Positions 3,450 through 29,231 of a stretch of 64,000 bases of DNA are shown here, in pieces. The position numbers were made by a program, and so were the translations under genes. How positions within the stretch are numbered: position 1 is the first letter of the stretch; every line of letters starts with the position of its first letter. Source of the stretch: an uncultured delta proteobacterium (GTDB taxonomy: Bacteria > Desulfobacterota > Desulfobacteria > Desulfobacterales > JAHEIW01); assembly GCA_963706575.1 (NCBI GenBank), contig CAVPNL010000006.1, positions 576,001 to 640,000 of the forward strand, in the 5' to 3' direction. A model generated the notes under the pieces. The model saw only the letters and a program-made list of their open reading frames with translations, was not told where the DNA came from and made no database searches.

Positions 3450-3658
3450 ATTATTATTATTAACCACTATATTTACCATTCCGGTCGGAGATGGTCAATA
3501 TTTATGTACTTTTTAGAGCGCTGATATTTATCAAGAGCCTTGCACCTTGTGCCGATTTTGTTTGCATTATGTGTTGACAGGCTTGATTTTTTATGGTTTT
3601 CGAGATCGTTAAAAACATGCAAATCAATTTGTTTTATTCGACTGGAAAAGGAGCAAAG

Positions 3659-4603: not shown

Positions 4604-5545
4604 ATGGAAACGGAAAAGGCATTTTATGAGAGGTTAGAGAGCAAAGGCGTCTCCCGAAGGGACTTCATGAAATACTGTACGTTCCTGACGGCGGCTATGG
4701 GGCTCTCGTCATCGTTTGTGCCAAAGGTGGCCGAAGTCTTTGCGGCACCGGCACAGCGCCCGCCGGTGATATGGCTGCATTTGGCAGAATGCACCGGTTG
4801 TTCCGAGGCTGTTCTCAGGTCCCAGTACCCCTATATCGACGATTTGATTCTTGAGGTTCTTTCTCTGGAATATCATGAGACGGTTATGGCGGCTGCGGGT
4901 CAGCAGGCTGAAGATCAACTTCAGATGGCACTGAAAAAGTACGCGGGCAAGTTCATCTGCGTGGTTGAAGGTGCCATTGCCACCAAATTCGACGGCGGAT
5001 ACGGTAAAATCGGCGGCCGGACATTTTTAGACATTGCCAAAGACGTAATTCCCAAAGCTGCCGGTGTGATCTGCATCGGATCCTGCTCCAGCTTTGGCAA
5101 TATCCAGGCGGCGAAACCCAACCCCGGCGGATACAAGGGGGTTGGTGAGGTGCTGGGAATCAAGACCGTAAACATCGCCGGATGTCCACCCAATCCGGTC
5201 AATTTTGTCGGTACGGTAGTCAGTTATCTGCTGCTCGGCAAACTTCCCGCCCTGGATGATCTGGGTCGTCCGTTGTTTGGTTACGGGAAATCCATCCATG
5301 ATCAGTGTCCGCGACGGTCTCATTTTGAAAACGAGGAATTTGTGGAGCAATTCGGTTCCGAGGAAGCCGCAATGGGCTATTGCCTTTACAAAATGGGCTG
5401 TAGAGGTCCGGAGACATACAACAACTGCCCGGTGGCCAAATTCAATGACGGCACCAGCTGGCCGGTTGAGGCGGGTGCTCCCTGCATCGGCTGCAGCGAG
5501 CCGAAATTTTGGGATAACTTCACGCCGTTTTATGAGGAACTCTAG
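4604..5545 (+). CDS. Periplasmic [NiFe] hydrogenase small subunit (Tat-exported, group 1b-like)
   Basis: GGAGGAGG RBS and ATG 4604; Tat motif SRRDFMK; ECTGCSE, GSC, GCPP, HDQC, CLYKMGC, WP..AGAPCIGC (Pro at the medial cluster position); no C-terminal membrane anchor. Confidence 0.95.
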   Translation: METEKAFYERLESKGVSRRDFMKYCTFLTAAMGLSSSFVPKVAEVFAAPAQRPPVIWLHLAECTGCSEAVLRSQYPYIDDLILEVLSLEYHETVMAAAGQQAEDQLQMALKKYAGKFICVVEGAIATKFDGGYGKIGGRTFLDIAKDVIPKAAGVICIGSCSSFGNIQAAKPNPGGYKGVGEVLGIKTVNIAGCPPNPVNFVGTVVSYLLLGKLPALDDLGRPLFGYGKSIHDQCPRRSHFENEEFVEQFGSEEAAMGYCLYKMGCRGPETYNNCPVAKFNDGTSWPVEAGAPCIGCSEPKFWDNFTPFYEEL

Positions 5546-5583
5546 TCTTAGCATAGCTATCCAGAAAAAAAGGGAGGAACCAT

Positions 5584-7233
5584 ATGGCACAGCGAATAAC
5601 GATAGATCCAATCACCAGAATTGAGGGCCACCTTCGAATCGAAGTCGAAGTGGCCGGCGGCAAGGTGGTCAATGCCTGGAGTTCAGGTCAGATGTTCCGG
5701 GGTATTGAGCTCATCCTGCAGGGTAGAGATCCGCGGGATGCCCACCATTTTGTGCAGCGCTCCTGCGGCGTCTGAACGTACACACATGCTCTGTCCTCGG
5801 TGAGGGCAGTCGATAATGCCGTAAAGGTTAAAATACCGAAAAATGCACGCATCATTCGAAACCTTCTGATGGGCGCTCAGTTCCAGCATGATCATATTGT
5901 ACACTTTTATCATCTGCATGCTTTGGACTGGGTGGATATTGTCAGCGCCCTTTCGGCCGATCCCAAGAAAACCGCCGCGCTGGCTGACAATGTCAGCAAT
6001 GCGCCCTGGGGAGGGGCCGCTTATTTTAAAGGTGTTCAAGAACGGATTAAAACTTTTGTCGATAGTGGTCAGCTGGGACCCTTTTCCAATGCGTATTGGG
6101 GTCATCCTGCATACAAACTGCCGCCCGAAGCCAACCTGATGGCCACCGCACACTATGTTGAGGCCATTCGTCTTCAGGCTCGAACCGCACGACTGCATGC
6201 CATTTTCGGCGGCAAGAATCCGCACCCGCAGTCACTGGTGGTCGGTGGTGTGACCTGCGTCAGAGATCTGAGGCCGGATCGCATCGCTGAATTTTTGTAC
6301 ATCACCAAAGAAACCCAGGAATTTATTAAAAATGTCTATATTCCGGATCTGCTGGCGGTTGCTTCCTTTTACAAGGACTGGGGCGCCATCGGTGGCACCA
6401 GCAACTTTCTGGCATGGGGTGAATTCCCCGAATCCGACAACGAGCCCGACAGCCTCTTTATGCCCAGAGGCGTCATCATGCAACGCAATCTCGCTGGCGT
6501 AAAGATGGCCAATCAGGCACGGGTTTCTGAAGATGTTACCCGGGGATGGTATAAGGACGGCCCGGCCAGGCATCCTTACGAGGGTGAAACCAAACCGTTG
6601 CAGGAAAACCCCCAATACAAACCGGGGGACGGCAAATATACCTGGTTTAAGGCCCCGCGTTATGACGGCGAGCCCTGCGAGGTCGGCCCGCTGACACGCG
6701 TTCTGGTCGCCTATGCCAATGGGCACAAAGAAATTAAGCCTGTTGTTGACAATGTGCTTAAAACGCTGGGCGTAGATGCCAACGCGCTGTTCTCGACCCT
6801 TGGGCGCACGGCCGCCAGAGGAATTGAAACCCTGGTCATCGGTGAACGGGTACAGACCTGGCTCATGGAACTGGTCGAAAACATCAAAAGCGGCGATACC
6901 AAAACTTATGAACCCTATGAAATGCCCGACAGCGGGATGGGGGTTGGCTTAAACGACGTTCCCAGGGGCTCCCTGGGGCACTGGGTCCAAATTGAAAATA
7001 AGAAAATTAAAAACTACCAGTACGTCGTGCCGTCAACCTGGAACCTGTGCCCGCGGGATGCCAAAGGCAAAATGGGTCCGGTGGAAGAAGCCCTTATCGG
7101 CACACCGGTAGCGGATCCCAAAAAACCGCTTGAGGTCCTGCGAACGGTTCATTCATTTGATCCCTGTATTGCCTGTGGGGTCCACGTCATCGATCCGGAC
7201 TCCAACGAGGTTTACAAGATCAAAGCGATTTAA
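5584..7233 (+). CDS. [NiFe] hydrogenase large subunit with in-frame TGA (putative Sec64) in the N-terminal RSCGV(U) motif
   Basis: ORFs 5584..5775 and 5800..7233 share one frame; read-through gives 549 aa (DPITRIEGH...QRSCGV*TYTHAL...PRG.LGH...[11 protein letters not shown] plus a 15-aa cleavable tail). Confidence 0.92.
5791..5809 (+). promoter_or_regulatory. Putative bacterial SECIS element
   Basis: CTGTCCTC-GGT-GAGGGCAG: 8-bp stem with one G-U pair and a G-starting apical loop, beginning 16 nt after the TGA at 5773-5775. Confidence 0.7.
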
Positions 7234-7257
7234 TGAGCCGCCAGGCCATGTTGCTTG

Positions 7258-7292
7258 AAACGGCCTCCCGAATCTGCGGGAGGCCGTTTTTT
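7258..7292 (+). terminator. Intrinsic terminator after the hydrogenase structural genes
   Basis: AAACGGCCTCCCG-AATCTG-CGGGAGGCCGTTTTTT. Confidence 0.85.
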
Positions 7293-7424
7293 ATGGTGTT
7301 GACGGTTCGTCCTGTTCTAGTGTAATACGCATACTCAGGATAAAAATATTCAATCGGCATTTGCAGGGGCGGGCTTTACGCCCGCTCTTTCATTAGCGGC
7401 TTAAATTCTAAAAATAGGTTAAAA

Positions 7425-7946
7425 TTGTCTGATAACAGTTCTTTTGACGATATCTATTCTACGGAAATTATGATTCTGGGGGTGGGCTGCATCCTTTTTT
7501 CGGATGAGGGCTTCGGTGTGCGTGTAATCGAAACCATTCAGGAGCGCTACAAATTTCCGGATAATGTTCTGGTGGTCGATGGCGGTGTTCTGGGTGTCAA
7601 TCTGCTGGGTGTCATTTCCAAACCGGACCACCTGATTGTGGTAGATGCCATTCGCAATAAAGGCAAGCCCGGGGATCTGTATCGTCTGTCAGGAGAAGCA
7701 ATCCCGGAGCGCATTCGGGCTAAAAATTCACTGCATCAAGTTGATTTTTTAGAAGCGCTGACCTTATGTCAGGCCCTTGATAAGGTGCCAGAAACGGTTA
7801 TTCTGGGTATAGAACCCGAAGATATAGAGACGCTGAGTACTGAATTGACACCCACCACTCAGTCGAAAGTCGATGCCGTTATCGAGATGGTGCTGGGTGA
7901 GATAAAGCGTTTGGGCGGGTCCTATCAGGAAAAAACGAGTGCATGA
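7425..7946 (+). CDS. Hydrogenase maturation endopeptidase (HyaD/HybD/HupD family)
   Basis: ILGVGCILFSDEGFGV, VVDGG, IVVDA and SLHQ motifs; start uncertain (TTG 7425 or ATG 7470). Confidence 0.92.
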   Translation: MSDNSSFDDIYSTEIMILGVGCILFSDEGFGVRVIETIQERYKFPDNVLVVDGGVLGVNLLGVISKPDHLIVVDAIRNKGKPGDLYRLSGEAIPERIRAKNSLHQVDFLEALTLCQALDKVPETVILGIEPEDIETLSTELTPTTQSKVDAVIEMVLGEIKRLGGSYQEKTSA

Positions 7947-8016: not shown

Positions 8017-10989
8017 ATGCCGACTCGACCTTCAAAACCGTCATCTTTCCGTTCAGCCTTGGAATGGATTCTATCGAAACCATGGATGAGCATCGCATTT
8101 TTTGTAGTGATATCTCTCTTGTTTGCTCTACAAATTCCCAAGCTTTCTTTTCGAACCTCTATTTATGACTTGCTGATCGAAAATCTTCCCGAAACCATCC
8201 GTTATCAAAAGGCAAAAAAAGTTTTTGGATCCGATGATATTATTCAAGTCGTGGTTAAGGCGGATTCTATTTTTGACACCGCCACTTTCAAAAAAATCGG
8301 GGTTCTTTCTGAAGCTTTCGGCAAAATCCAGGGCGTCAGAAGGGTCATCAGTCTGCCCGGTATCCGGCAAAAAGTCGATCCGGGTGGAAACTGGGCCATC
8401 GATCGTTTCGCCAAAGTGATATCGCCGGTCGACCTGTTTAAAAAAAATCTGATATCAGCGGACCAAAAAATGAGTGCCATTACACTGTTTCTGGAAAGTG
8501 AAGCAGTACATGAAAGCGTTATCGAGAAGATCAATGACATCATTGACAAAGATTCCGGCACCCTTTCTCTTTACCAGATCGGCATGCCGCTGGTTTCACA
8601 GGCGCTAGCTAAATACACCATTAAAGACTTTCAAACCCTTCCCATTTTTACACTGATCCTAATTACCCTGACCCTTTTTGTTCTGTTTCGCAGGCCAAGC
8701 CACGTCCTGCTGGTGTTGATGGTTGTGGCCACAGTGCTAATATGGACATTTGGGCTCATGGCGTTGGTGCAAGTGCCTTTGTCTGTTTTAACCATGATTG
8801 TTCCGGTGTTCCTGATCGCTGTTGGAACGGCTTATTGCCTGCATGTTATGTCTGAATACATTTCCAATGCAGGACTTGCCGGAACTAAAAGGGAAGCAGT
8901 TATTGCAACCTTTGCGAATTCAGCATTGCCTTGCACGCTGGCGGTTGTGACCACCCTGTTCGGAGTCGGGTCGCTTTTTGTCAACCGCATCCGTGCGATC
9001 CATGAATTTGCGCTGTTTACTTGTTTCGGGCTGGGCAGTTTGCTGCTTGTGATTCTTTTGCTTCTGCCTGCCGTGCTGGTTTTGATCCCTCTGCCGCCTC
9101 AAAAGGAGCAACGTGTTTCCGGCTTTGGCCGATTGCTGGATCGCATCCTTGATATGATTATCGACATCGGTTTGAAGCACCAAAAAGCTGCTTTCCTTTC
9201 GATCGGGATTTTGTCTCTGCTGGCAGCGGCTGGCATATTCTTCATCCAGGTCGAGACCAATCCCTTCGAATATTTCAAAAAAGATATACCGATCAGACAA
9301 AATTTCGACGACAGCTATCAGAAACTTTCAGGTAGTTTTGCTATCAGTGTGGTAATGGAAAGCCGGCTGGATTACTATTTTGAGAATCCGCAGCATATCT
9401 CTGAAATTAAGCGCTTTCAGGAATATCTGGAAACCCTTGACGGTGTGGATAAAACCGTTTCTTTTGCCGATTATGTGATGCTTGTCCACTACGCCTTAAG
9501 CAAATACGATTCAAAATATTACGTGATCCCCCAAGAAGCTTATGAAACACGCATGGCGATTAATAACTATAAGGGTCTGCTGGGGGAAGATATGTATTCT
9601 CCGTTTATGACGCCGGAGCTCAACAAGGCCAACATCCTTGTGCTGACGCATATCTCGAGTTCGAAAGATCTGCTCAAAATCAAAGATCAAATCCTTTTCC
9701 ACGCGCAACAACACCTACCCGAACACCTCGCGGTTGAAGTTACCGGATTTGCTGTGGCAATTTCTGCCAGCAGTCATTTGCTTGTTGCAGGCCAGACGAA
9801 AAGTATTTTGCTGGGTCTAATCCTCATTTTCAGCATTATGTTTTTAATGTTTCTGTCGGGGAAAGTCGGCCTGATCGCCTTAGTCCCCAACTGTTTTCCG
9901 ATTATCATGAACTTTGGAATTATGGGGTGGATGGGCATTCCTCTTTCAACGTCCACCAGCCTGATCGCCAGTATTGCCATCGGGCTGGCGGTTGATGACA
10001 CCATCCATTATCTACACCGCTATAACACTGAATTTAAGAAAGATTTGGATAAAGACCGGGCACTGCGTGCTGCCGTAAAAAGTGTCGGAAAGCCGATCAT
10101 TTTTACCACGCTGGCCATCAGTATCGGCTTTTTTGTTTTAATGCTTTCTCATTTCCAACCGACGGCGATTTTTGGTTTTCTGATGGTTATCACCCTGCTG
10201 GCTGCGCTTATTGGTGATCTGATCCTTTTGCCGGCACTCATGCTTCACGTTGAACTGGTAACGGCATGGGATCTTCTCAAATTAATGCCGACGATGGGAG
10301 GCATTTCAACCGGTGTTGCCCATGAGTTGAACCAGCCCCTGAACGCCATCAAAATGGGCAGTGACTTTTTAAAGATGATGATTGCTCAGAAGGCAAAAAT
10401 TGAGCAAGCGCATCTGATTCAGGTGGCCAATGAAATCGGCAATCAGGTTGATCGGGCATCGGACATCGTCAACCGGCTGCAGGCATTTGGACAACGGTCT
10501 GATTTTGCCCGACAAACTGTAAATATCAATGATCCAATCAAGGATGTCATGGACATTGTCGGGCATCAGTTGAGCTTAGACAATATCGAGATTAAACTGG
10601 ATTTAGAAGAGAACCTGCCCGCTATCATCGGCCATCCAAACCGATTGGGACAAGTGGTCTACAATCTTGTCTCCAATGCCCATGAAGCCATCAACGAAAA
10701 GAAGAAAATTGGCGCAGATGCCGGTCAGGCTGTGATTCGGATCAGATCCTTTTCAGAAGGCGACCGGGTGATACTGGCAGTATCGGATACCGGAATCGGC
10801 ATTTCAGCCGTCGACATCGGACGGGTTTACGAACCGTTTTTCTCAACGAAGCCAAGCGGTCAGGGAAAAGGACTGGGGCTGAGCATCAGCAATCAGATCG
10901 TGAGGGATTTCAATGGCCGCATCGATATTGAAAGCAAGGAACACCAGGGGGCGACCTTTAAAGTGACCTTTCCCCGCGCCAGGTCCTGA
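8017..10989 (+). CDS. MMPL/RND-family membrane protein fused to a histidine kinase (HisKA + HATPase)
   Basis: Two MMPL-type halves (IAVGTAYCLH; IAIGLAVDDTIHY), then H-box GVAHELNQPL, N-box QVVYNLVSNA, DTGIGI, FFSTK, GKGLGL. Confidence 0.88.
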   Translation: MPTRPSKPSSFRSALEWILSKPWMSIAFFVVISLLFALQIPKLSFRTSIYDLLIENLPETIRYQKAKKVFGSDDIIQVVVKADSIFDTATFKKIGVLSEAFGKIQGVRRVISLPGIRQKVDPGGNWAIDRFAKVISPVDLFKKNLISADQKMSAITLFLESEAVHESVIEKINDIIDKDSGTLSLYQIGMPLVSQALAKYTIKDFQTLPIFTLILITLTLFVLFRRPSHVLLVLMVVATVLIWTFGLMALVQVPLSVLTMIVPVFLIAVGTAYCLHVMSEYISNAGLAGTKREAVIATFANSALPCTLAVVTTLFGVGSLFVNRIRAIHEFALFTCFGLGSLLLVILLLLPAVLVLIPLPPQKEQRVSGFGRLLDRILDMIIDIGLKHQKAAFLSIGILSLLAAAGIFFIQVETNPFEYFKKDIPIRQNFDDSYQKLSGSFAISVVMESRLDYYFENPQHISEIKRFQEYLETLDGVDKTVSFADYVMLVHYALSKYDSKYYVIPQEAYETRMAINNYKGLLGEDMYSPFMTPELNKANILVLTHISSSKDLLKIKDQILFHAQQHLPEHLAVEVTGFAVAISASSHLLVAGQTKSILLGLILIFSIMFLMFLSGKVGLIALVPNCFPIIMNFGIMGWMGIPLSTSTSLIASIAIGLAVDDTIHYLHRYNTEFKKDLDKDRALRAAVKSVGKPIIFTTLAISIGFFVLMLSHFQPTAIFGFLMVITLLAALIGDLILLPALMLHVELVTAWDLLKLMPTMGGISTGVAHELNQPLNAIKMGSDFLKMMIAQKAKIEQAHLIQVANEIGNQVDRASDIVNRLQAFGQRSDFARQTVNINDPIKDVMDIVGHQLSLDNIEIKLDLEENLPAIIGHPNRLGQVVYNLVSNAHEAINEKKKIGADAGQAVIRIRSFSEGDRVILAVSDTGIGISAVDIGRVYEPFFSTKPSGQGKGLGLSISNQIVRDFNGRIDIESKEHQGATFKVTFPRARS

Positions 10990-11194: not shown

Positions 11195-12133
11195 ATGTCA
11201 TTAAAATTATTATGGATTCAATGCGGCGGTTGTGGCGGCGACACCTGGTCGTTTTTCAATGCGGAATCTCCCAACGTTACTGAACTGTTTCGTTCACTTG
11301 ATGTTGAACTGCTGTGGCATCCTTCGATTTCAATCCGCAGCCCCGATTATCTAAAAACCATCAGTGAGGAATTGCTGTCAGGCGCCCTGGAGCTAGATGT
11401 CCTGTGCGTCGAAGGGTCCATCCTTCGGGGACCCGGTGGAACCGGCCGCTATGACGAGATCCACGGAAAACCTAAAAAAGATCTTGTGGCTTCATTAGCA
11501 AATCATGCCAGGTATATTTTAGCCATCGGCACCTGTGCCAGCTACGGCGGCATCGGGGCCAATACCGAAATAGAAGCAACCGGGATGCAATTTCTCAGAG
11601 AAGAAAAAGGGGGATTTCTGGGTGAAGATTTCACCTCCCGAAGCGGGATGCCGGTTATTAATTTGCCCGGGTGCCCCTGCCATTGCGATATTGTTGCCGG
11701 GACGCTGGTCGCGATTGGTTCCGGAGCGCAGCTCGAGCTGGATGAATACAACACCCCCGTGGAATGGTACGGAATGATGGTACACCAGGGATGCACCCGT
11801 AACGAGTACCATGAGTACCGTGTGGAAGAGCGGAAATTTGGCGAAAAAGGATGCATGTTTTTTCATTTGGGCTGTCACGGTCCCCTGGTTCGCGGGCCGT
11901 GTAACAAGATGCTGTGGAACAACCGTTCATCAAAGACAAGGGTAGGTGTTCCCTGTTTTGGCTGTACGCGGCCCGACTTTCCGCAACAGTATCCGTTTTT
12001 TCAAACCAGAAATATCGAGGGGATCCCCATAGAGTTGCCCGAAGGGATCAGCCGGGCGCATTACATGGCCTATAAAGGTATGGCCGCGGCAGCCGCGCCC
12101 AAACGGTTAAAAACGAGAAAGACGGGTATCTAA
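11195..12133 (+). CDS. Cytoplasmic sensory [NiFe] hydrogenase small subunit (HupU/HoxB-like)
   Basis: No Tat signal; CGGCGGD, GTCAS, PGCPCH, HQGC, GCMFFHLGC, PCFGC; C-terminal GIPIELPEG...AAAPKRL extension resembling HupU/HoxB. Confidence 0.88.
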   Translation: MSLKLLWIQCGGCGGDTWSFFNAESPNVTELFRSLDVELLWHPSISIRSPDYLKTISEELLSGALELDVLCVEGSILRGPGGTGRYDEIHGKPKKDLVASLANHARYILAIGTCASYGGIGANTEIEATGMQFLREEKGGFLGEDFTSRSGMPVINLPGCPCHCDIVAGTLVAIGSGAQLELDEYNTPVEWYGMMVHQGCTRNEYHEYRVEERKFGEKGCMFFHLGCHGPLVRGPCNKMLWNNRSSKTRVGVPCFGCTRPDFPQQYPFFQTRNIEGIPIELPEGISRAHYMAYKGMAAAAAPKRLKTRKTGI

Positions 12134-12184
12134 CCTGACAGGGTCTTGATCACTACTGTTGAAATATTTGCATCGGTCATCCAA

Positions 12185-13696
12185 ATGAAACCAAAAAAAA
12201 TAAATATTTTACCCGTAAATCGAGTCGAAGGCGATCTTGAAGTCCGGATCGAAATTGAAAAAAACAGGGTATCCGACGCCTGGAGTGCCGGTATTATGTA
12301 CCGAGGCTTTGAGAATTTGCTCATCGGCCGCGCTGTTTTGGATGGCCTGGTTCTGACTCCCCGCATATGCGGCATCTGTAGTACCTCTCATTTGAAAGCC
12401 GCAGCCAAAGCATTGGATATGTTTTTCAGGGTAAAAATACCGGATAATGCTGTACGCATTCGAAATATTACCTTGATTGCTGAAAAGATCCAAAATGATA
12501 TCCGCCACGCATTTATGCTGTTCATGACGGATTTTACAAATCCGGCCTATCAAAAGCATCCTTTATTTGATGATGCCGCGCGGCGTTATCAACCATTGAC
12601 CGGTGAGACCACGGTCGCAACCGTCCGGGAAACCAAAAGAATTCTTGAAATTATCGCCATTTTAGGCGGTCAATGGCCGCATTCATCTTTTATGGTGCCG
12701 GGTGGTGTGGTGTGTGTGCCCAGTACCAATGATCTGGCGCAATGTTTGTTTTTGATACGGAATTTTCGAAAGTGGTTCGAAAACAGCGTTCTGGGATGTC
12801 TCATTGAACGCTGGATGGAAGTCAAATCCAAGGCCGATTTGGATGTCTGGCTGGAGGAAGCCGAATCTCACACACACGGCGAGCTCGGGTTTTATATCCG
12901 GTTTGCGAAAGAAGCCGGTTTGAAAAAGATTGGCAGGGGCTGTGGAAATTTTATTAGTTTTGGCTCACTGGATTTACCAAATGACACCGGCGTTAAACGG
13001 GCAGGGAAAAACCGGCAGTTTCTGCCGTCGGGGTTTTTTCATCAGCTTGAGCTTAAAGCGTTTGATCAGAAAAAAATATCGGAAGATGTCTCACATTCAT
13101 GGTTTGATGCCGGCGAGGGCGGCAAACATCCATTTGACGGTGAAACCCGACCCTATGCCAGCGGTAAAGAGAGTGGAAAATATTCCTGGGCCAAAGCGCC
13201 GCGCTATGATGCCATGCCGGCTGAAACCGGCCCCCTCGCGGAAATGGTTGTTGCTTCCAATCCGTTGATTATTGATTTCATCAGGCAGGATGGCCCGAGC
13301 GTGTTCCTAAGAGAGCTAGCGCGTTTGATAAGGCCGGCTTATTTGATACCGCTTATGGAGCAATGGCTTGAAGAAACGATCCGCTGTCATGAAGAATTTT
13401 ATCAGGATCATCGCAAAAAGGAAAATGGAGAGGGTTACGGCTTGGTGGAAGCCCCCCGGGGCGCATTGGGCCACTGGGTGAAGATTAAGGACGCCAAAAT
13501 TCAAAAATATCAAATTATTACTCCGACTGCCTGGAATGCCTCACCGCGTGATGCGAACGGTTTTAGAGGACCCTGTGAAGAAGCCATTGTTGGAACTGAA
13601 ATCAAGGATCTGGACAATCCGATAGAAGTCGATCATATCATCCGGTCTTTTGATCCGTGTCTGGTATGCACGGTTCACACCATTGATGCAACATAG
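12185..13696 (+). CDS. Sensory [NiFe] hydrogenase large subunit (HupV/HoxC-like)
   Basis: VNRVEGDL, L1 TPRICGICSTSH, L2 SFDPCLVCTVH followed by only 5 residues; ATG 12185 in frame with ORF 12146. Confidence 0.9.
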   Translation: MKPKKINILPVNRVEGDLEVRIEIEKNRVSDAWSAGIMYRGFENLLIGRAVLDGLVLTPRICGICSTSHLKAAAKALDMFFRVKIPDNAVRIRNITLIAEKIQNDIRHAFMLFMTDFTNPAYQKHPLFDDAARRYQPLTGETTVATVRETKRILEIIAILGGQWPHSSFMVPGGVVCVPSTNDLAQCLFLIRNFRKWFENSVLGCLIERWMEVKSKADLDVWLEEAESHTHGELGFYIRFAKEAGLKKIGRGCGNFISFGSLDLPNDTGVKRAGKNRQFLPSGFFHQLELKAFDQKKISEDVSHSWFDAGEGGKHPFDGETRPYASGKESGKYSWAKAPRYDAMPAETGPLAEMVVASNPLIIDFIRQDGPSVFLRELARLIRPAYLIPLMEQWLEETIRCHEEFYQDHRKKENGEGYGLVEAPRGALGHWVKIKDAKIQKYQIITPTAWNASPRDANGFRGPCEEAIVGTEIKDLDNPIEVDHIIRSFDPCLVCTVHTIDAT

Positions 13697-13982: not shown

Positions 13983-16073
13983 GTGAATACCATGGAAACT
14001 TTATCTCAGCCCTCCCGGGCGGCTCCAAGTGCCGACAGCACCTACTGGGCATTGGTCGAGGAAAACGCGATCTTAAGAGAAGAAATACAGGTTGCCCGTA
14101 AAGCTGCAGAGCTGACCGCCAACCTTGTTGTCAAACAATTCGAGGAGACCGAAAAGGTTCTTCACCGTTTCCAGGTCGCCAATGCGCAAAGAAAAGCCGT
14201 ACTTGATTCCGCAACCCGAATTTCGATAATTGCCACCAACAAAGATGGTGTCATTACGGTTTTTAACACGGGTGCGGAACACATGTTGGGTTACAGTGCC
14301 CAGGAAATCATCGGCCAACAGACACCGGAACTTTTTCACTTACAAGCTGAATTGGAGAACGTCCGCGATCGCTTGAGCTTTAAATACGGCCGTCGGGTGA
14401 CCGGACTCGATGTTTTTTTTGAATATGTGGCGCAAAAACGATTGGCCCCCAGTGAATGGACGTATGTTAGAAAAGATAGCACTCAATTTCCGGTCAGGAT
14501 GACAATTAACGTCCTGCGAGAACCGTATGGAGACATCAGCGGCCTACTGTTCATCGCCATGGATATTGCTGAAATAAAGCGTTCGGAAAAAGCGCTGAAA
14601 GAAAGTGAGCGCAAATACCGGCTGTTGGTCAGGAACCTGCCAAACTGTGTCTACAAGGGTTACATAGATGGCACCATTGATTTTTTTGATAATAAAATTG
14701 AGCAAATTACAGGGTACAGCAAAGAAGAGTTTTTATCCAGAAAGGTAAACTGGTTTAATCTCGTTGACCCGGATGATCTGGAGCACACCAAGGAGCAGTT
14801 CAAACAGGCCTTACTCACTGACAGCTCTTACATCAGGGAATATCGCGTTAAGTCAAAAACCGGTGATACGATCTGGATTCAGGACGGTGGGCAAATCATT
14901 TATGGGGAAAACGGGGAGGTTGAATTTATCACCGGCGCATTTCTGGATATCACCGAACGCAAGCTCGCCGAAAAAGCGCTGCATGAATCCGAGGAAAAAT
15001 ATCGATCCCTGTTTAACAGCGGCCCTATCCCGATCTTTGTTTTGGAGCGCGAAACTTTAGAAATTTTAGATGCCAACCCGATGGCTGAGGATACCTATGG
15101 CTATTCCAATGGTGAATTAACCGGTATGCCTTTTTCAGCTCTCGGTCCGGTCGACGAGATCTATGAAAGCATCTCTGCTTTTGACAATATGGATTGGCCC
15201 AGAGCCTGCGTTGTGAGTTCGAGGGTTCGCCATTATCAGAAAGGGAATACCCCGTTTTACGTCAGGGTTACGGCCTGTCCGACGCGCTACAAAGATAGAG
15301 ATGCAATCATCCTTGCAACCACAGACATCACCGAAATGTTGGAAAAAGAGGCGCAACTGCTGCAGGCCAGTAAAATGACGACGCTGGGTGAAATGTCGGC
15401 CGGGATTGCCCATGAATTGAATCAGCCGTTAAATGCGATTAATATGGGAAGCGAATATCTCAAAATGATGATCGAAAACCGAAAAAAGATACCCGAGGAA
15501 AACCTGGTTGAAGTCTCCGATCAAATCAGTGAACAGGTGGACAGGGCTTCTGAAATCATTGTTCGCCTCAGGGAATTTGGGCACAAATCCGACTTTGCCA
15601 AAGAAAAGGTCAACATCAACAAATCGGTACGGGTTGCTTACGGTATTATCAATCAACAGATTCGCCTTCAAAATATTGACCTTATCCTGGATCTTGAGAA
15701 GAATTTGCCGCCGATTATGGCGCGCAATACCCGCATTGAACAAGTCATCTTTAACTTGCTCACCAATGCCATGGATGCGTTAACTCAGAGAAAAAAAGCG
15801 AGATCGGAGGGGGCTAAACCAGCCATTACCATTCGTTCGTTTCTTGAAAATGATCGGGTGAAGCTGGCCGTTTCAGACAATGGCAGCGGCATACCGAAGG
15901 CTGTTTTAGAAAAGGTATTTGAGCCGTTTTTTACCACCAAGGAAGTGGGCAGCGGCATGGGGCTCGGGCTTTCGATCACTTACGGGATTGTCAAAGATTA
16001 TAACGGCGAAATAGATATTCAAAGTGAAGAAGGAAAGGGTACGACGGTTAGGTTAACTTTCCCTTGCGCCTGA
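13983..16073 (+). CDS. Cytoplasmic triple-PAS histidine kinase (HoxJ/HupT-like role)
   Basis: Three PAS/PAC repeats, H-box AGIAHELNQPL, N-box, DNGSGI, FFTTK, GMGLGL; no TM segments; directly downstream of the sensory hydrogenase. Confidence 0.92.
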   Translation: MNTMETLSQPSRAAPSADSTYWALVEENAILREEIQVARKAAELTANLVVKQFEETEKVLHRFQVANAQRKAVLDSATRISIIATNKDGVITVFNTGAEHMLGYSAQEIIGQQTPELFHLQAELENVRDRLSFKYGRRVTGLDVFFEYVAQKRLAPSEWTYVRKDSTQFPVRMTINVLREPYGDISGLLFIAMDIAEIKRSEKALKESERKYRLLVRNLPNCVYKGYIDGTIDFFDNKIEQITGYSKEEFLSRKVNWFNLVDPDDLEHTKEQFKQALLTDSSYIREYRVKSKTGDTIWIQDGGQIIYGENGEVEFITGAFLDITERKLAEKALHESEEKYRSLFNSGPIPIFVLERETLEILDANPMAEDTYGYSNGELTGMPFSALGPVDEIYESISAFDNMDWPRACVVSSRVRHYQKGNTPFYVRVTACPTRYKDRDAIILATTDITEMLEKEAQLLQASKMTTLGEMSAGIAHELNQPLNAINMGSEYLKMMIENRKKIPEENLVEVSDQISEQVDRASEIIVRLREFGHKSDFAKEKVNINKSVRVAYGIINQQIRLQNIDLILDLEKNLPPIMARNTRIEQVIFNLLTNAMDALTQRKKARSEGAKPAITIRSFLENDRVKLAVSDNGSGIPKAVLEKVFEPFFTTKEVGSGMGLGLSITYGIVKDYNGEIDIQSEEGKGTTVRLTFPCA

Positions 16074-16095: not shown

Positions 16096-16461
16096 GTGGA
16101 GAAAATCCTGGTTATCGATGACGAAAAGGCGACCCTGTCTATGTTTCGTCTTTTTTTGGATGCATATGGCTACAGCGTTTATACGGCGGAAAACGGCACT
16201 GAAGGACTTGAAATTTTTCGCAAAGAAAAACCGGCGATCGTACTGACCGACGTAAAAATGCCAGGTATAGATGGACTGGCCGTGCTGAAGCAGATAAAAC
16301 AGATCGCTCCCCATACAGCGGTAATTGTCATCACCGGTCATGGTGATACCGATCTGGCCGAGCAGGCGGTGGAACTGGATGCTGTTGATTTTATTAGTAA
16401 ACCGATCAAAAAAGAAGCCCTGGACGCGGCGCTTGAAAAAGCAAGAAAGAAGTTGGGATGA
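16096..16461 (+). CDS. Single-domain response regulator (receiver only)
   Basis: ILVIDD, LTDVKMPGIDG, ITGHG, KP motifs; 121 aa; RBS GGAAGGA. Confidence 0.92.
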   Translation: MEKILVIDDEKATLSMFRLFLDAYGYSVYTAENGTEGLEIFRKEKPAIVLTDVKMPGIDGLAVLKQIKQIAPHTAVIVITGHGDTDLAEQAVELDAVDFISKPIKKEALDAALEKARKKLG

Positions 16462-17000: not shown

Positions 17001-19280
17001 ATGCCGAATAACCATGCAGCCAAAAAAATTGAAGTCAACGGCATTGTCCAGGGAGTCGGTTTTCGACCCTTTGTTTACAATCTTGCCAATCAGTATGGCT
17101 TAAAAGGCGAGGTGGCCAATACCGCTGCCGGGGTATCGATTCATATCGAAGGACCGCCGGAGTGCATCCGGGGCTTTGAAACAGACCTGACCGCAAAATG
17201 CCCGCCGCTGGCCCATGTGGTCGAAATAGCCGGTCGATCCGAACCGATAAAGCCCTATGCGGATTTCAGGATTGCGAAAAGCAGGGGCCAGGCCCAAATG
17301 TCCACCCTGATCTCACCGGATGTTTCAATTTGTGATGACTGCCTGCGGGAGCTTTTCGATCCCGCTGATCGGCGCTATCTGTATCCGTTTATTAATTGCA
17401 CCAACTGCGGACCGCGCTACACCATCATTGATGACATCCCCTATGACCGGCCCAAAACCTCCATGCGGCATTTTAAGATGTGCGCGGCCTGCCAGTCGGA
17501 ATACGATGACCCCACCAACCGGCGCTTTCATGCCCAGCCGAATGCCTGTGCCGAATGCGGACCGCATGTCCGCCTTTATTCAAATCGCCGGCAACCGATT
17601 GATACTGATAATCCCGTTAAAAATGCGGCCGATCTCATCCGCCGGGGGCAGATTGTTGCTGTCAAAGGGCTTGGCGGATATCACCTGGTGGCTGATGCCG
17701 AAAACAGCGAAGCGGTCATCCGGCTTCGCAACCGTAAGATGCGCGAAGAAAAGCCCTTTGCCATCATGTCCGCCGATCTGGAACGTATTCGAAAATATGC
17801 CCGGGTGCGGCCCGCGGAAGAGAATTTACTGACCTCTATGCAGCGCCCGATTGTATTGCTGCATAAAAAGACAGGCGGCTCCATTTCAGAAGCGGTGGCA
17901 CCCCGCAATAAATACTGGGGTGTAATGTTGCCTTATACGCCGCTGCACTACCTGCTTTTAAATCATGGGTTTGCCGCTCTCGTCATGACCAGCGCGAATC
18001 TGACTGACGAACCCATCGCCATTGATAATGAAGATGCCTTTGAACGCCTCGCCGATATTGCCGATTATTTTTTAGTTCACAACCGCGACATCTATTTGCG
18101 CAGTGATGATTCCATTGTCAGACATAGCGCAGATCATACACGCTATATTCGACGCTCACGGGGGTTTGTGCCGATCCCGCTGTTTTTAAAACGTGCGGTT
18201 CCACCGATTCTTGCCTGCGGCGCCGAGTTGAAAAATACGATCTGCATTACCAAAGATGACAAGGCCTTTTTGAGCCAGCATATCGGGGATCTTGAAAACA
18301 AAATCACGCTGGATTTTTTTCAGCTGACGGTGGACCATTTGCAGCGCATTCTCGAGATTCGGCCTGAAATAATCGCCTGTGATATGCATCCGGACTATCT
18401 GAGCACGCGCTTCGCCAGAGAACAGACAAAAACCCGCCTTATCGAAGTCCAGCACCACCATGCCCACATCGTTAGCTGTATGGCCGAACACCAGCTGGAA
18501 GGCGCGGTCATCGGTCTGTCATTTGACGGCACCGGCTACGGCAGCGACGGCGCCATCTGGGGGGGTGAAGTGCTGGTGGCCGAGGCCAAACAATTTGAAA
18601 GAGTCGCGCATCTGGCATATGTGCCCATGCCGGGCAGCGCCGCTGCCATAAAGGAGCCCTGGCGGATGGCGATCAGTTATCTGTATGATGCCTTCGGCGA
18701 CGCTTTTGGGGATCTGGGTCTTCCGGTCTTAAAACAAAATGATTCGCAAAAATTAAAAATCATGGTGGAAATGATTCAAAAGGGCATCAATTGCCCGCCG
18801 ACCTCGAGCCTGGGGCGCCTGTTTGATGGTGTGGCCGCCATCATCGGTATCCGCAACCAGGTGAATTTCGAAGGACAGGCGGCCATGGAATTGGAAATGC
18901 TGGCAGCGGGTGATACGGATTCAATTTATGACTTTGAATGGCTAACGGGAGATGGCATCCGGATTTTACCGGCACCCATTATTCGCGGCGTTGTACAGGA
19001 TGTTCAAAACGGGCTGTCAATTGCGCAAATCGGCATTAGATTTCACAAAACCCTGATAGCCCTTTTCAGCGAGATATGCGTGGCCGTTGGCCGGGACCAC
19101 GATTTGAATCGAGTCGTGTTAAGCGGGGGATGTTTTCAAAATTCCATCCTGTTAAGCGGCATGATCCATAAGCTGGCATCCCGTGATTTTGAGGTATTCG
19201 CTCACCGGCGGGTTCCCACCAATGACGGGGGCATATCACTTGGGCAAGCCCTCATTGCTGCAGCTATTGCGGAGCAATAG
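17001..19280 (+). CDS. hypF: Carbamoyltransferase HypF
   Basis: GIVQGVGFRP acylphosphatase domain, Zn-finger CxxC pairs, KGLGGYHL, QHHHAH, NDGGISLGQ. Confidence 0.97.
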   Translation: MPNNHAAKKIEVNGIVQGVGFRPFVYNLANQYGLKGEVANTAAGVSIHIEGPPECIRGFETDLTAKCPPLAHVVEIAGRSEPIKPYADFRIAKSRGQAQMSTLISPDVSICDDCLRELFDPADRRYLYPFINCTNCGPRYTIIDDIPYDRPKTSMRHFKMCAACQSEYDDPTNRRFHAQPNACAECGPHVRLYSNRRQPIDTDNPVKNAADLIRRGQIVAVKGLGGYHLVADAENSEAVIRLRNRKMREEKPFAIMSADLERIRKYARVRPAEENLLTSMQRPIVLLHKKTGGSISEAVAPRNKYWGVMLPYTPLHYLLLNHGFAALVMTSANLTDEPIAIDNEDAFERLADIADYFLVHNRDIYLRSDDSIVRHSADHTRYIRRSRGFVPIPLFLKRAVPPILACGAELKNTICITKDDKAFLSQHIGDLENKITLDFFQLTVDHLQRILEIRPEIIACDMHPDYLSTRFAREQTKTRLIEVQHHHAHIVSCMAEHQLEGAVIGLSFDGTGYGSDGAIWGGEVLVAEAKQFERVAHLAYVPMPGSAAAIKEPWRMAISYLYDAFGDAFGDLGLPVLKQNDSQKLKIMVEMIQKGINCPPTSSLGRLFDGVAAIIGIRNQVNFEGQAAMELEMLAAGDTDSIYDFEWLTGDGIRILPAPIIRGVVQDVQNGLSIAQIGIRFHKTLIALFSEICVAVGRDHDLNRVVLSGGCFQNSILLSGMIHKLASRDFEVFAHRRVPTNDGGISLGQALIAAAIAEQ

Positions 19281-19392
19281 CAGCAGGAGCCCGCAGGGCT
19301 GCTCTTGAAGCGCAGCGCTCCTATAGGCCTGCAAGGCCGCTCTTAAAGCGAAACGTTTTTACTGAGCGCTCAAATTTCCGGAGGAAATTTTT

Positions 19393-20484
19393 ATGACCCT
19401 AAAACACATCGATGAGTACCGAGATTCGGAGATATCTAAACAATTAATCGAAAAGATCAAATCCACCAGCAAAAAGGATCTCCGTTTGATGGAAGTTTGC
19501 GGTACGCATACGGTTTCCATTTTTAGAAGCGGGATCCGTTCGGTGTTGCCGCAGACCATTTCACTGCTTTCCGGACCGGGCTGCCCGGTGTGCGTGACCG
19601 ACCAGGCCGAGGTTGACGCCTTTATTGAGCTTGCGCGCATCGATGATGTGATTATTGCGACTTTTGGCGACTTAATGCGCGTGCCCGGCACCAAGTCTTC
19701 TCTGCAAAAGGAAAGTGCCGCAGGCCGGGATATCCGGGTGGTTTACTCAACTTTTGACGCCCTTGAAATCGCCAAGAAAAATCCCGCTAAAAAGGTCGTA
19801 TTTCTCGGTATCGGGTTTGAGACCACCGCTCCCACCATAGCGGCCGCCATTTTATCGGCCGCCCAGATGGACCTAAACAATTTTTCGGTGATTTCCGCTC
19901 ATAAATTGGTCCCCCCGGCGTTGCAGGCGCTGATGGCGTCGGAGGACGTCAGGATTGACGGCTTTATCTTGCCCGGCCATGTTTCAGTAATCATTGGATT
20001 GAACGCTTACCGGCCTTTTTTTGATCAACATCAAATCCCCTGTGTCGTTGCGGGGTTTGAGCCCATCGACATTTTGCAGGCCATATCCATGCTGGTTGAA
20101 ATGCTGGAATCCGGCAGCCCGGCCCTGGACAATGCCTATCCAAGAGCAGTGACACCCGAGGGGAATACCAAGGCGCAGCAAATCCTGGATGAGATTTTTG
20201 AACCGGCCGATGCCTGCTGGCGGGGCATCGGTGTGATTCCGCAAAGCGGCTTAAAGATTCGTGAAAAATATGCCGCCCATGACGCCCAAAAATTATTTGA
20301 TGTTCAGGTACCGGATGCCAAAACGCCGCAAGGCTGTGCCTGCGGTGAAATTCTCATCGGCACCAAAACACCACCGCAGTGCGCGCTATACAAAAAAGCC
20401 TGCACACCGATGGACCCGGTGGGGCCCTGCATGGTCTCAACCGAGGGAACGTGTGCGGCGTATTATAAGTATCACAGCGATTGA
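19393..20484 (+). CDS. hypD: Hydrogenase maturation protein HypD
   Basis: MEVCGTHT, GPGCPVC, GFETT, PGHVS, CMVSTEGTC. Confidence 0.97.
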   Translation: MTLKHIDEYRDSEISKQLIEKIKSTSKKDLRLMEVCGTHTVSIFRSGIRSVLPQTISLLSGPGCPVCVTDQAEVDAFIELARIDDVIIATFGDLMRVPGTKSSLQKESAAGRDIRVVYSTFDALEIAKKNPAKKVVFLGIGFETTAPTIAAAILSAAQMDLNNFSVISAHKLVPPALQALMASEDVRIDGFILPGHVSVIIGLNAYRPFFDQHQIPCVVAGFEPIDILQAISMLVEMLESGSPALDNAYPRAVTPEGNTKAQQILDEIFEPADACWRGIGVIPQSGLKIREKYAAHDAQKLFDVQVPDAKTPQGCACGEILIGTKTPPQCALYKKACTPMDPVGPCMVSTEGTCAAYYKYHSD

Positions 20485-20585
20485 ACAAAAAAGTAATGAG
20501 TGCTGAGGACTGGGCATTTAGGGCAACGCGTATAGGCATGGCGTATGGGGCATGGGGCATGGAGCAAGGCGCATAGGGTTCAGAA

Positions 20586-20683
20586 GTAGGGCCGGCCTCC
20601 GTGCCGGCCGAGAAACGGCGGCCACAGAGGGCCGCCCTACTTTCCCTCTCCCTTTGACGGGAGAGGGTCCAGGGTGAGGGTGA
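20586..20683. repeat. GTAG-type REP-like element (copy 2) and adjacent CCCTCTCCC/GGGAGAGGG hairpin repeat
   Basis: GTAGGGCCGGCCTCCGTGCC...GCCGCCCTAC followed by TCCCTCTCCCTTTGACGGGAGAGGG...GGGTGAGGGTGA. Confidence 0.7.
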
Positions 20684-20735
20684 ACTAAAAAAAAGAAAAC
20701 CACAGACAACGGACCACGAACGACGGGCAATTGAT

Positions 20736-21752
20736 ATGACAACAGATAAAATTTTACTGGATCACGGCAGCGGCGGCAAGATCTCCCATAGCCTCACCAA
20801 AGACATGATGCTGCCGGTATTTGATAACGACATACTGGCGGCGCTCAATGATGGGGCCATCTTTGAGCTGGCGGGCAGGCGGCTTGCTTTTTCAACCGAT
20901 TCATACACGGTGGATCCCATTTTTTTCCCGGGCGGAAATATCGGTGACCTGGCGATCAACGGAACGGTTAATGATATTGCCATGTGCGGGGCCATTCCGC
21001 TATATTTGAGCGTCGGACTCATTATTGAAGAAGGCCTGTCCATGACGGATCTTGAAACCATTATCAACGATATGGGCCGGGCTGCCGAAGCTGCGGGAGT
21101 TACTGTCGTTACCGGGGATACCAAGGTGGTCCCCAGAGGAACTGCCGACCGGATTTTTATCAATACCTCAGGGATCGGTTTGATTCCGCAAGACGTGCAT
21201 GTGGCCAGCGACAATGCCAGAGCCGGCGATAAAATTATTTTAAGTGGAACCATTGCCGATCACGGGATTACGATATTAACCCAGCGTGAAGGGCTTTCCT
21301 TTGAGACATCGCTGCAGAGCGATTCGGCACCCTTGAACCACATGATCAAAAAGATGTTTGCGGCCACTGCTGCCGGAGACATTCATGTTTTACGGGATCC
21401 GACCCGCGGTGGTGTCGGCACGGCGCTAAATGAGATCGCTGAAAAATCTGAAATCGGTATCGAGATCATTGAAGATAAAATTCCGCTAAAGGACGAGGTG
21501 GCGGGAGCCTGTGAATTGCTGGGGTTTGATCCCCTTTATCTGGCGAATGAAGGCAAGCTCCTGGCATTTGTGTCGCCCGATTGTACCGCTGCGGTTTTGA
21601 AAGCAATCCAATCCGACCCTTACGGCAAGGATGCCGCGGTTATCGGCCAGGTGGTAGATGATTCTCCCGGCAAGGTCTTTTTGAAAACACGCATCGGCGG
21701 CAAACGGATTGTGGATATGTTGGCGGGCGAGCAGCTCCCTCGAATCTGCTAA
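20736..21752 (+). CDS. hypE: Carbamoyl dehydratase HypE
   Basis: HGSGG, TDSYTVDPIFFPGG, RDPTRGG, C-terminal LPRIC. Confidence 0.97.
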   Translation: MTTDKILLDHGSGGKISHSLTKDMMLPVFDNDILAALNDGAIFELAGRRLAFSTDSYTVDPIFFPGGNIGDLAINGTVNDIAMCGAIPLYLSVGLIIEEGLSMTDLETIINDMGRAAEAAGVTVVTGDTKVVPRGTADRIFINTSGIGLIPQDVHVASDNARAGDKIILSGTIADHGITILTQREGLSFETSLQSDSAPLNHMIKKMFAATAAGDIHVLRDPTRGGVGTALNEIAEKSEIGIEIIEDKIPLKDEVAGACELLGFDPLYLANEGKLLAFVSPDCTAAVLKAIQSDPYGKDAAVIGQVVDDSPGKVFLKTRIGGKRIVDMLAGEQLPRIC

Positions 21753-21804
21753 AAGCAGCATAGCGCAAAGGGCATAGCGCATAGCGTCATGCGGTGTGAA
21801 CGCG

Positions 21805-22818
21805 ATGAATAAATTTTTATCCATTATTTTGGTGTTGGTGACTTTAGTACTTCCGACCTCCTCTGATGCTAACCGTGAGCACCTGATTGCGGGTCGGACG
21901 ATGGGCACGACCTATCACATTCAGGTGGTCACCGATGCCGCGGAAAAGGTTAATGGCCTCAAAGAAAAAATTGATCGTCGGTTGGATGCGATCAATCAGG
22001 TTTTTTCCACCTATATCAAGGACAGCGAAATCAGCCGCTTTAATGCATTCGGGGTGGCCGGAGAAAAATTTGCGGTTTCCGATGATTTTATGCAGGTCAT
22101 GCGGGCTGCCGGCAGGATTTACCGGCTTTCTGAAGGCGCCTGGGACGGCAGCGTGCACTCACTGGTTGATTTATGGGGCTTTGGGCCGACGCAACGGCAA
22201 CCCCAAAAGCCTCCGGCAGCTGAAATTAAAGCCCTGATGCAAACTATCGGATTTGACCGCATTCGAGTCGCGGAGCCGAATTTTCTGGTGAAGAATCTGG
22301 CCTCGGTTACCCTTGATCTAAATTCCATTGCCAAAGGTTTTGCGGTGGATCAGGTTTCCAAGCTGGCAGCCGCCGCCGGGTTTACAAATTATCTGGTTGA
22401 AATCGGCGGTGAGGTTTACGCCGCCGGTGTTCGTACCGACGGTCAAAATTGGCGGGTGGGCATCAATCGGCCGCAGAAAGATGCGGCTTTCAACGAGGTG
22501 TATAAAGCGGTATCGATTGCCAACCAGGCCTTTGCCACCAGCGGTGATTACAGGAATTTTTTCGAGATCGACGGTGTGCGCTACTCCCACGTGATTGACC
22601 CGCGCAGCGGCTACCCGGTTTCAAACGGCGTGGTCAGTGTTTCCGTTATTGCCGACAACTGCACCCTGGCGGACGGCCTGGCAACCGCCGTCATGGTCAT
22701 GGGAACTGAAAAAGGCATTCAACTGGTGAACCGGTTAGACAACGTCGAATGCTTCATCGTCGTTGAAAAATCAGACGGCCGCCTCCTCGATTTTTACTCC
22801 CCAGGGTTTGCCCGCTAG
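21805..22818 (+). CDS. apbE: FAD:protein FMN transferase (ApbE family)
   Basis: GRTMGTTY, LDLNSIAKGFAVD, VEIGGE, ATSGDYRN, HVIDP, ADGLATA; N-terminal signal peptide. Confidence 0.93.
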   Translation: MNKFLSIILVLVTLVLPTSSDANREHLIAGRTMGTTYHIQVVTDAAEKVNGLKEKIDRRLDAINQVFSTYIKDSEISRFNAFGVAGEKFAVSDDFMQVMRAAGRIYRLSEGAWDGSVHSLVDLWGFGPTQRQPQKPPAAEIKALMQTIGFDRIRVAEPNFLVKNLASVTLDLNSIAKGFAVDQVSKLAAAAGFTNYLVEIGGEVYAAGVRTDGQNWRVGINRPQKDAAFNEVYKAVSIANQAFATSGDYRNFFEIDGVRYSHVIDPRSGYPVSNGVVSVSVIADNCTLADGLATAVMVMGTEKGIQLVNRLDNVECFIVVEKSDGRLLDFYSPGFAR

Positions 22819-27549: not shown

Positions 27550-27780
27550 GATGCTTTATTCTTTTGATAAAGGTTCAGCGTTTGAAAGATTGTTCATTGA
27601 TCAGGGAACATAAAAAGCGCTTTTAAGTCAAGAGAAAAATGAGCGGCACGATATCCGACAAAACAACTTATTCTGCTCTTGTCTTGACAATTCCTGGACA
27701 AAAAAATAGGTAATTTCATACATGAATATTTTAAATAAAATGCCGTCGGATCAAAATTTTCAATGCCCGAGGATACCACC

Positions 27781-29175: not shown

Positions 29176-29231
29176 ATGCGATCCGCTCGTGTGCCGAAAA
29201 GGGGTGGTGCGCAATTTAGCAACCGTCGCCT

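Follow-up and report, generated by a model that had tools for sequence, protein, structure and literature searches.

A lipid-pump-like RND protein fused to a histidine kinase of the hydrogen-sensor family in Desulfobacterales

Results

One gene encodes an RND module and a histidine kinase

The gene analyzed here lies in a 64,000-nucleotide stretch of DNA (the window) from an uncultured delta proteobacterium of the Desulfobacterales (GenBank assembly GCA_963706575.1, contig CAVPNL010000006.1, positions 576,001 to 640,000 of the forward strand) and encodes an MMPL-type RND membrane protein fused to a histidine kinase (Table 1). The first-pass annotation, made from the letters alone, had seen some 750 residues of MMPL-type protein and a complete HisKA/HATPase in a single unbroken open reading frame, and the frame itself, Pfam and AlphaFold2 all confirmed this. 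The frame is unbroken, with the junction HVELVTAWDLLKL-MPTMGGISTGVAHELNQPL inside it, and in the 990-residue product Pfam found two MMPL stretches (E 3.8e-33), HisKA at residues 765-825, HATPase_c at residues 873-988 and a sterol-sensing match. The best NCBIfam model was HAE3 (TIGR00921, residues 26-742), which scored 216.5 bits against a cut-off of 351.9, and the HpnN model TIGR03480 scored 90.7 against a cut-off of 751.85, so that the protein is assigned to neither family. The AlphaFold model that the annotation had proposed as a check, built with AlphaFold2 from a 34-sequence alignment (mean predicted local distance difference test score [pLDDT], 79.4), has 12 membrane-length helices, the last of which stops near residue 744, followed by a poorly resolved segment at 747-762 (pLDDT <50), a DHp hairpin and an ATP-binding domain. 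Foldseek ranked MmpL5, MmpL4, HpnN, NCR1/NPC1L1 and MmpL3 at the top (11-16% identity), and none of the solved structures matched both halves. The 12 transmembrane helices (TM), two repeats and two periplasmic domains (AlphaFold2, Foldseek and the double MMPL match) place the module among MMPL-like members of the RND superfamily, and the kinase, with its H box and N, G1, F and G2 boxes intact, is of class I. Because of the RND topology and the end of the last helix near residue 744, we infer that the fused kinase is cytoplasmic.

Table 1. Features of the fusion gene and its surroundings (positions in the window)
Feature	Positions	Strand	Evidence
RND/MMPL-histidine kinase fusion gene, 990 amino acids (aa)	8017..10989	+	
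12-helix RND module (aa 1-744), two periplasmic porter domains	8017..10248	+	Pfam, NCBIfam, AlphaFold2, Foldseek
TM4 core LIAVGTAYCLHV; Ala272 replaces Asp of MmpL3-type pumps, Tyr273 retained	8812..8847	+	
TM10 core AIGLAVDDTIHYL; Asp660/Asp661 retained, candidate proton-relay site	9976..10014	+	
Conserved junction VELVTAWDLLKL, aa 745-756; common to forms with a cyclic nucleoside monophosphate (cNMP)-binding tail, not in stand-alone RNDs	10249..10284	+	
DHp/HisKA domain; phospho-acceptor His769 codon 10321-10323	10285..10491	+	Pfam, alignment
HATPase_c domain with N, G1, F and G2 boxes	10633..10980	+	Pfam, alignment
Paralog: RND module (56% identity to that of the fusion), cNMP-binding domain, degenerate GGDEF with RxxD site	22938..26126	+	
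PAS-domain histidine kinase; nearest in-genome paralog of the fused kinase (51% over aa 756-988)	13983..16073	+	
Single-domain receiver, candidate common target of both kinases	16096..16461	+	
Upstream periplasmic group 1b-type hydrogenase and maturation protease	4604..7946	+	small 4604-5545, large 5584-7233, protease 7425-7946
Small subunit, cytoplasmic (no Tat signal) sensor-type [NiFe] hydrogenase	11195..12133	+	
Large subunit of sensor-type hydrogenase (group 2b/2c-like, label by context only)	12146..13696	+	
hypF, hypD, hypE and apbE between the two RND paralogs	17001..22818	+	

The fusion is a conserved, lineage-restricted family

The best 120 of 1489 database matches (52-92% identity), which stem from several independent sources, carried RND module and kinase on one chain in all 120 cases; the profiles that tested them had been built from these and related sequences, and precomputed Pfam lists show MMPL and HATPase_c together within single rows. 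Because fused homologs come from several sources, the fusion is a real conserved family and not an assembly artifact, and the two separate genes in related genomes that would have spoken against the annotation did not appear among the homologs listed. Longer fused forms did not appear: among the 120 matches of 1734-4950 aa that were listed, no MMPL domain was recorded. In public sequencing runs, the best run contained 0.23 of the words of the stretch, and the contigs of 4 runs derive from relatives; none of these contigs spans the stretch, no listed piece formally bridges the junction, no row shows an indel in the open reading frame, and one contig skips 10334-11024, a gap to which no weight is given.

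Source names of the homologs indicate Desulfobacterales and Desulfobacteraceae. A search of 61 related genomes found the fusion in 12, and a sample of 201 genomes from across the phylum, its own included, contained 2 with it; the fusion is therefore lineage restricted. Ratios of nonsynonymous to synonymous substitution (dN/dS) against three orthologs were 0.12-0.13 for the RND part and 0.12-0.22 for the kinase, which means purifying selection on both. Among the 118 homologs longer than 900 aa, His769 was kept in 117 and Glu770 in 116, and Asn887, Asp924, Gly926, Gly928, Phe941, Gly952 and Gly954 of the N, G1, F and G2 boxes in all.

Gene context was surveyed in 129 loci; the best 80 of at least 590 matches contributed 79, and the other 50 were regions drawn from related genomes. 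After removal of five duplicates, with two loci that hold both forms (L020 and L038) counted twice and 3 truncated or untailed rows set aside, these comprised 36 loci with the fusion (kinase form), 66 with the cNMP-tailed form and 21 with distant RND proteins. The fusion gene was damaged in two of the 36, lying in three pieces in L022 and ending near residue 845 in L017.

The RND core retains acidic residues on TM10

Tyr273, Thr313, Asp660 and Asp661 were present in 93 of 93 near members, so that a protonation site can exist in the RND module as judged from conservation; Thr312/Thr313 and Thr697 were nearly invariant. At the positions that we take to correspond to the Asp/Tyr pairs of MmpL3, the fusion has Ala272-Tyr273 on TM4 and Asp660-Asp661 on TM10, which differs from the antiporter pattern of a pair on each helix, and one Asp-Tyr pair could remain. 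In MmpL3 the pairs lie on TM4 and TM10 (PMC10171966), and AcrB has two Asp on TM4 with Lys940 and Thr978 (PMC8277102); the relay pattern of the fusion appears to resemble the AcrB set placed on the other repeat. The idea that loss of the TM4 Asp is the mark of a dead pump that became a sensor was rejected, as Asp occurred at position 272 in 0 of 138 distant relatives and 0 of 20 untailed rows. Because distant and stand-alone relatives also lack this Asp, the module can be assigned neither as transport dead nor as transport competent. A LolA-like partner gene was found in 0 of 36 kinase-form and 0 of 66 cNMP-form loci versus 9 of 21 distant RND loci; the one LolA-like gene located lies elsewhere in the genome, unlike the carrier encoded alongside a lipid exporter.

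The kinase probably replaced a second-messenger-binding tail

The paralog 12 kb downstream carries a VTxWD junction like that of the fusion, just after TM12. Of the top 150 representatives from clustering at 50% identity, 86 had a cNMP tail, 3 a kinase (two of them fragments), 52 a short tail and 9 another tail, which in three cases was a LolA-like domain; the VTxWD junction was seen in tailed forms and not in complete short-tailed ones. It is the best-conserved region of the RND module (mean column conservation, 0.92 versus 0.79 for TM8-12), and Trp751 and His769 were 18 residues apart in 152 of 152 kinase-form rows, near-duplicates among them. The cNMP forms retain the phosphate-binding motif and mostly the RxxD site, and their GGDEF motif is dead; by established domain knowledge both tail domains would therefore be second-messenger receptors, and the paralog, a predicted RND protein under dual second-messenger control, deserves a study of its own.

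In the RND tree, the kinase forms were nested in a group otherwise made up of cNMP forms, which also form the outer branches, so that the cNMP form is likely the parent of the kinase form. The RND halves of the kinase forms did not make up one clade, forcing at least two changes (approximately unbiased test, P = 0.010, on 37 of 143 rows and an LG+G4 quick tree, for a group named after the first tree had been viewed). A single fusion event followed by vertical descent of the whole gene was thus rejected: the kinase domains form one group and the RND halves do not, and, on these trees, tail swaps or gene conversion between paralogs appear to be needed. The simplest history would be that the kinase core was captured once and that RND halves or tails were then exchanged between paralogs.

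A sister kinase and a receiver are the steadiest partners

The PAS kinase gene follows the cytoplasmic sensor hydrogenase, 3 kb downstream of the fusion. All 34 distinct fused kinase domains made up one group (Shimodaira-Hasegawa-like approximate likelihood ratio test, 89, not starred) within a starred 58-row group that includes 24 neighboring sister kinases, and their branches were longer than those of the sister kinases. A partner kinase of the same subfamily occurred in 23 of 36 fusion loci. Pfam found no PAS domain in the fusion, which thus differs from HoxJ and HupT, soluble PAS-input kinases beside a sensor hydrogenase and an NtrC-type regulator. In the PAS kinase of the window, about 70 N-terminal residues before the first PAS domain had no Pfam match and are a possible docking site for the sensor hydrogenase.

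A conserved receiver (at least 52% identity) was encoded in 24 of 36 fusion loci, and no other locus had it at 45% or more; 8 of the 12 fusion loci without it were contigs or cuts of 14 kb or less. Its phospho-acceptor Asp motif was present in 24 of 24, and it was a single-domain protein in 20 and a REC-STAS protein in 4. By synteny it is a candidate shared target of fused and sister kinase, and since none of the 24 has a DNA-binding domain, the system is not a HoxJ/HoxA-type transcription switch for hydrogenase genes. Scans for promoters, terminators and sigma-54 sites gave nothing above chance or no motif. The steadiest partners of the fusion are the sister kinase and the receiver, not the hydrogenase itself.

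Hydrogenase genes are frequent neighbors

The annotation had placed the fusion inside a hydrogenase cluster, which holds in the window, where it lies between the periplasmic and the sensor-type hydrogenase; across loci this synteny was partial. Of the 36 kinase-form loci, 23 had hydrogenase or hyp genes, compared with 47 of 66 cNMP-form loci and 0 of 21 distant RND loci; among loci of at least 12 kb, the counts were 18 of 28, 34 of 44 and 0 of 13. No more than 1.8% of the fusion's own genome is located within 10 kb of a hydrogenase or hyp gene. Because the loci are related and the 21 distant controls, 6 of them from one genome, were chosen by us, these counts overstate independence and are given as a pattern rather than as a statistical test. 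No sensor-type hydrogenase was encoded in the 66 cNMP-form rows, compared with 14 of the 36 kinase-form loci. Gene order varied by lineage, with the RND gene in the gap between large subunit and protease, after hypE-apbE, or ahead of the sensor hydrogenase, and the cNMP-form gene was often flanked by the hydrogenase large-subunit gene and the associated protease genes.

That the fusion always lies in a hydrogenase cluster was rejected, since 13 of 36 loci had no hydrogenase gene in the DNA fetched. All five genomes checked from such loci carry [NiFe] hydrogenase large subunits elsewhere, and 10 of the 13 loci keep the receiver, there often with an sCache-HAMP-PAS sister kinase. In six related loci (L005, L006, L013, L014, L017 and L077), the fusion gene stands with genes for a metallophosphoesterase, an acyl-CoA ligase, an sCache kinase and the receiver, and several of them run on into genes for CoA ligases, radical SAM proteins and ketosynthases, which may be a lipid-related context and one that includes no hydrogenase. 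A tandem pair of hydrogenase maturation protease genes lies immediately 5' of the fusion gene in L007, L011 and L012.

Other features of the window and loci

The periplasmic hydrogenase large-subunit gene (start at 5584) has an in-frame TGA at 5773-5775, at the second Cys of the N-terminal RxCGxC (the metal-bridging position), and annotation pipelines truncate the gene. The TGA occurred in 32 of 41 such large-subunit sequences of the loci and the pattern in 5 of 201 phylum genomes; L037, L045, L070 and L076 have TGA at both Cys positions. A 19-base hairpin (window 5791-5809) was found within 1 mismatch in 32 of 32 TGA forms and with at least 4 mismatches in 7 of 9 Cys forms; its folding energy by itself was unremarkable (z, -0.43), and the genome encodes a tRNA-Sec. 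The TGA was dropped as a possibly new feature, as N-terminal CXXU group 1 sequences had been noted by Baltazar et al. in 2011, as reported in PMC13582414.

The flavin transferase gene apbE (21796-22818, + strand) was a frequent neighbor of the cNMP form and stood beside no kinase-form or distant locus in the related-genome comparison. In L063, L064, L065, L049 and L067, the cNMP-form gene is followed by one to three adenylate/guanylate cyclase-like genes, and several of these loci add a lone cNMP-binding protein, an anti-sigma-like ATPase and a STAS protein. In the window, the cNMP-form gene is directly followed by a region rich in signaling genes (26170-30734) with two SpoIIE-type phosphatases and a PAS-LuxR protein. 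At 3593-4138 (+ strand), a 181-aa protein without Pfam or NCBIfam match is encoded, which also precedes the hydrogenase small-subunit gene in 5 other loci.

Discussion

A lipid-pump-like protein is joined here to a kinase of the hydrogen-sensor kinase family, which suggests an unstudied route by which membrane state might enter hydrogen-related signaling. With a probability of about 0.6, we read the fusion as a transceptor-like membrane sensor, in which RND conformation would control a kinase that converges with its sister kinase (in the window, the H2-sensor kinase) on one receiver. This reading joins the observed architecture, conservation, ancestry and co-location to a proposed activity, direction of signaling, partner and signal. 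As a first step, which can be read from the sequences, the cytoplasmic cNMP-binding tail of an ancestral RND protein would have given way, at the VTxWD junction after TM12, to a catalytic core from the subfamily of kinases that work with the H2-sensor hydrogenase. The junction, a presumed coupler of tail and pump in the parent, would then relay RND conformation to the DHp helix 18 residues on and so set the balance of autokinase and phosphatase. Fused and sister kinase, the latter an H2-sensor PAS kinase or, in other lineages, an sCache-HAMP-PAS kinase, would act on one shared single-domain or REC-STAS receiver; through this sharing, membrane input would be integrated with H2 or periplasmic-solute input, and the output would be posttranslational rather than directly transcriptional. 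The annotation had proposed a transceptor that reports lipid flux, membrane state or proton motive force to the hydrogenase regulatory circuit. This proposal was supported in part: conserved catalytic residues, paralogy to the H2-sensor PAS kinase, a shared receiver and the missing export partner give the fusion the appearance of a functional sensor kinase tied into the H2-sensor circuit, with lipid flux, membrane state and proton motive force as candidate signals. It is qualified in that the circuit is not a HoxJ/HoxA-type switch and that 13 of the 36 loci are without a hydrogenase gene in the DNA fetched.

Within the sensor reading, the leading candidate for the input, at somewhat under even odds, is occupancy or cycling of the RND module with a hydrophobic ligand or lipid. 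The protonation state or proton motive force at the TM10 Asp pair is a weaker candidate, and it would be a surprise if the RND module were reporting that it touches a periplasmic protein, for example the hydrogenase. More speculatively, and with rather little chance of being right, the hydrogenase-linked RND subfamily could carry no cargo and serve instead as a membrane device that responds to protons and works in either direction: cNMP and cyclic di-GMP (c-di-GMP) would gate one paralog from the cytoplasm, and the other would report protonation of the TM10 site, set by the proton motive force from periplasmic H2 oxidation, to a kinase that shares the receiver of the H2 sensor. If so, the cell would weigh the supply of H2 against the energy that it really obtains from it, and RND pumps would offer bacteria a sensor platform that is general and can be swapped.

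Several points weigh against a sensor. Loss of the TM4 Asp does not mark a nontransporting sensor. The parent tails appear to be receptors rather than outputs, and ancestral flow was therefore probably from tail to pump; this speaks for an ancestor that was a regulated transporter. AlphaFold2 leaves the junction unresolved (pLDDT <50 at 747-762), Pro758 (114 of 118 homologs) interrupts the helix that normally carries the signal into the DHp domain, and the turn preceding His769 is more variable in the fusion than in sister kinases. In addition, 13 of 36 loci have no hydrogenase nearby, six related ones lying beside acyl-CoA ligase, ketosynthase and radical SAM genes, and because the loci as a whole are related, their counts overstate independence.

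The receptor-like parent tails lead directly to the strongest alternative, one we hold to be improbable though worth serious attention, in which the RND module moves a lipid or hydrophobic cargo needed around the hydrogenase system and the kinase-core tail switches transport through its state of dimerization, nucleotide binding or phosphorylation, as controlled by way of the shared receiver or the sister kinase, probably in parallel with cNMP and c-di-GMP binding in the paralog. The identical junction in kinase and cNMP forms, the retained Asp pair on TM10, the retained Thr pairs and the frequent position of the cNMP form between hydrogenase large subunit and protease genes agree with such a switch, as does the control of MmpL3 activity by phosphorylation of its cytoplasmic C-terminal domain (PMC10171966). 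However, full conservation of ATP-binding and phospho-acceptor residues exceeds the needs of a passive tail, and a LolA-like or outer-membrane partner was found in 0 of 102 near-family locus rows. We think it unlikely that the RND module is an uncoupled tether that merely anchors or oligomerizes a constitutive kinase or phosphatase tuning the receiver, with any transport being independent: Pro758, the degenerate turn before His769, the low-confidence junction and the longer branches of the fused kinases would fit, but the invariant length and sequence of the junction and strong purifying selection across a 744-residue RND module are hard to explain for a mere anchor. An artifact or recent accidental read-through of two genes is barely conceivable, for although one of the 36 loci is in pieces and one truncated, it is refuted by independent fused homologs (120 of 120 listed), whose kinases form one group with dN/dS of 0.12-0.22.

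If the sensor reading is right, autophosphorylation would directly read out RND conformation, which is hard to measure in pumps of the MmpL/HpnN type. The natural pair in one operon, with a like pump and junction and either a second-messenger-binding or a kinase tail, makes the direction of allostery testable, and the fusion offers a handle on the putative group 2b/2c-like H2 sensors of Desulfobacterales, which are abundant sediment sulfate reducers. The annotation had allowed that the architecture might already be a described family; no description of an RND/MMPL-kinase fusion was found in the literature searched, most subscription papers and supplements lying outside the search, and the term "RND" was absent from the accessible text of the transceptor papers PMC11109136 and PMC13022988 by term search.

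Comparison with known systems

Patched, NPC1 and Dispatched are likewise derived from RND proteins and act in signaling or lipid handling, and the fusion shares the Pfam sterol-sensing match with them, but they are eukaryotic and without a fused kinase, and the resemblance is one of fold (11-14% identity). With the lipid exporters HpnN (HAE3) and MmpL3/4/5 (HAE2), the fusion has in common the 12-helix RND architecture, two periplasmic domains and acidic residues on TM10 (PMC8277102, PMC10171966). In contrast to these, it scores below the HAE3 and HpnN cut-offs, lacks the TM4 Asp, has two Asp on TM10, and combines a kinase tail and hydrogenase linkage with the lack of a LolA-like partner.

A cytoplasmic sensor hydrogenase followed by a PAS kinase, here the paralog of the fused kinase, recalls group 2c and the group 2b H2-sensor systems, whose proteins are named HupUV-HupT-HupR and HoxBC-HoxJ-HoxA. 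Unlike in those systems, the fusion would be a second, membrane-bound kinase input; no NtrC-type regulator was found in the loci, and in 22 of 36 fusion loci the DNA fetched contains no sensor hydrogenase gene. In HydDB, group 2b is kinase linked and group 2c comprises putative H2 sensors, listed as undetermined (PMC5037454).

Fusions of a transporter to a kinase are uncommon, and a kinase input with an RND fold would constitute a new class of sensor. In Ks-Amt5, an ammonium transporter-kinase fusion, a transporter (Amt) fold serves as kinase input and the ligand is known. The closest precedent for coupling a transporter to a kinase is CbrA, an SLC5 transporter-kinase fusion, which with CrbS forms the SLC5-STAC kinases; as in these, the fusion carries a full secondary-transporter fold and HisKA/HATPase on one chain with a conserved coupling element (PMC13022988). 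By Pfam and Foldseek it stands apart from CbrA/CrbS, having an RND rather than an SLC5 fold and neither STAC nor PAS; its kinase joins about 25 residues past the last helix, and its receiver is a single-domain or REC-STAS protein rather than a transcription factor.

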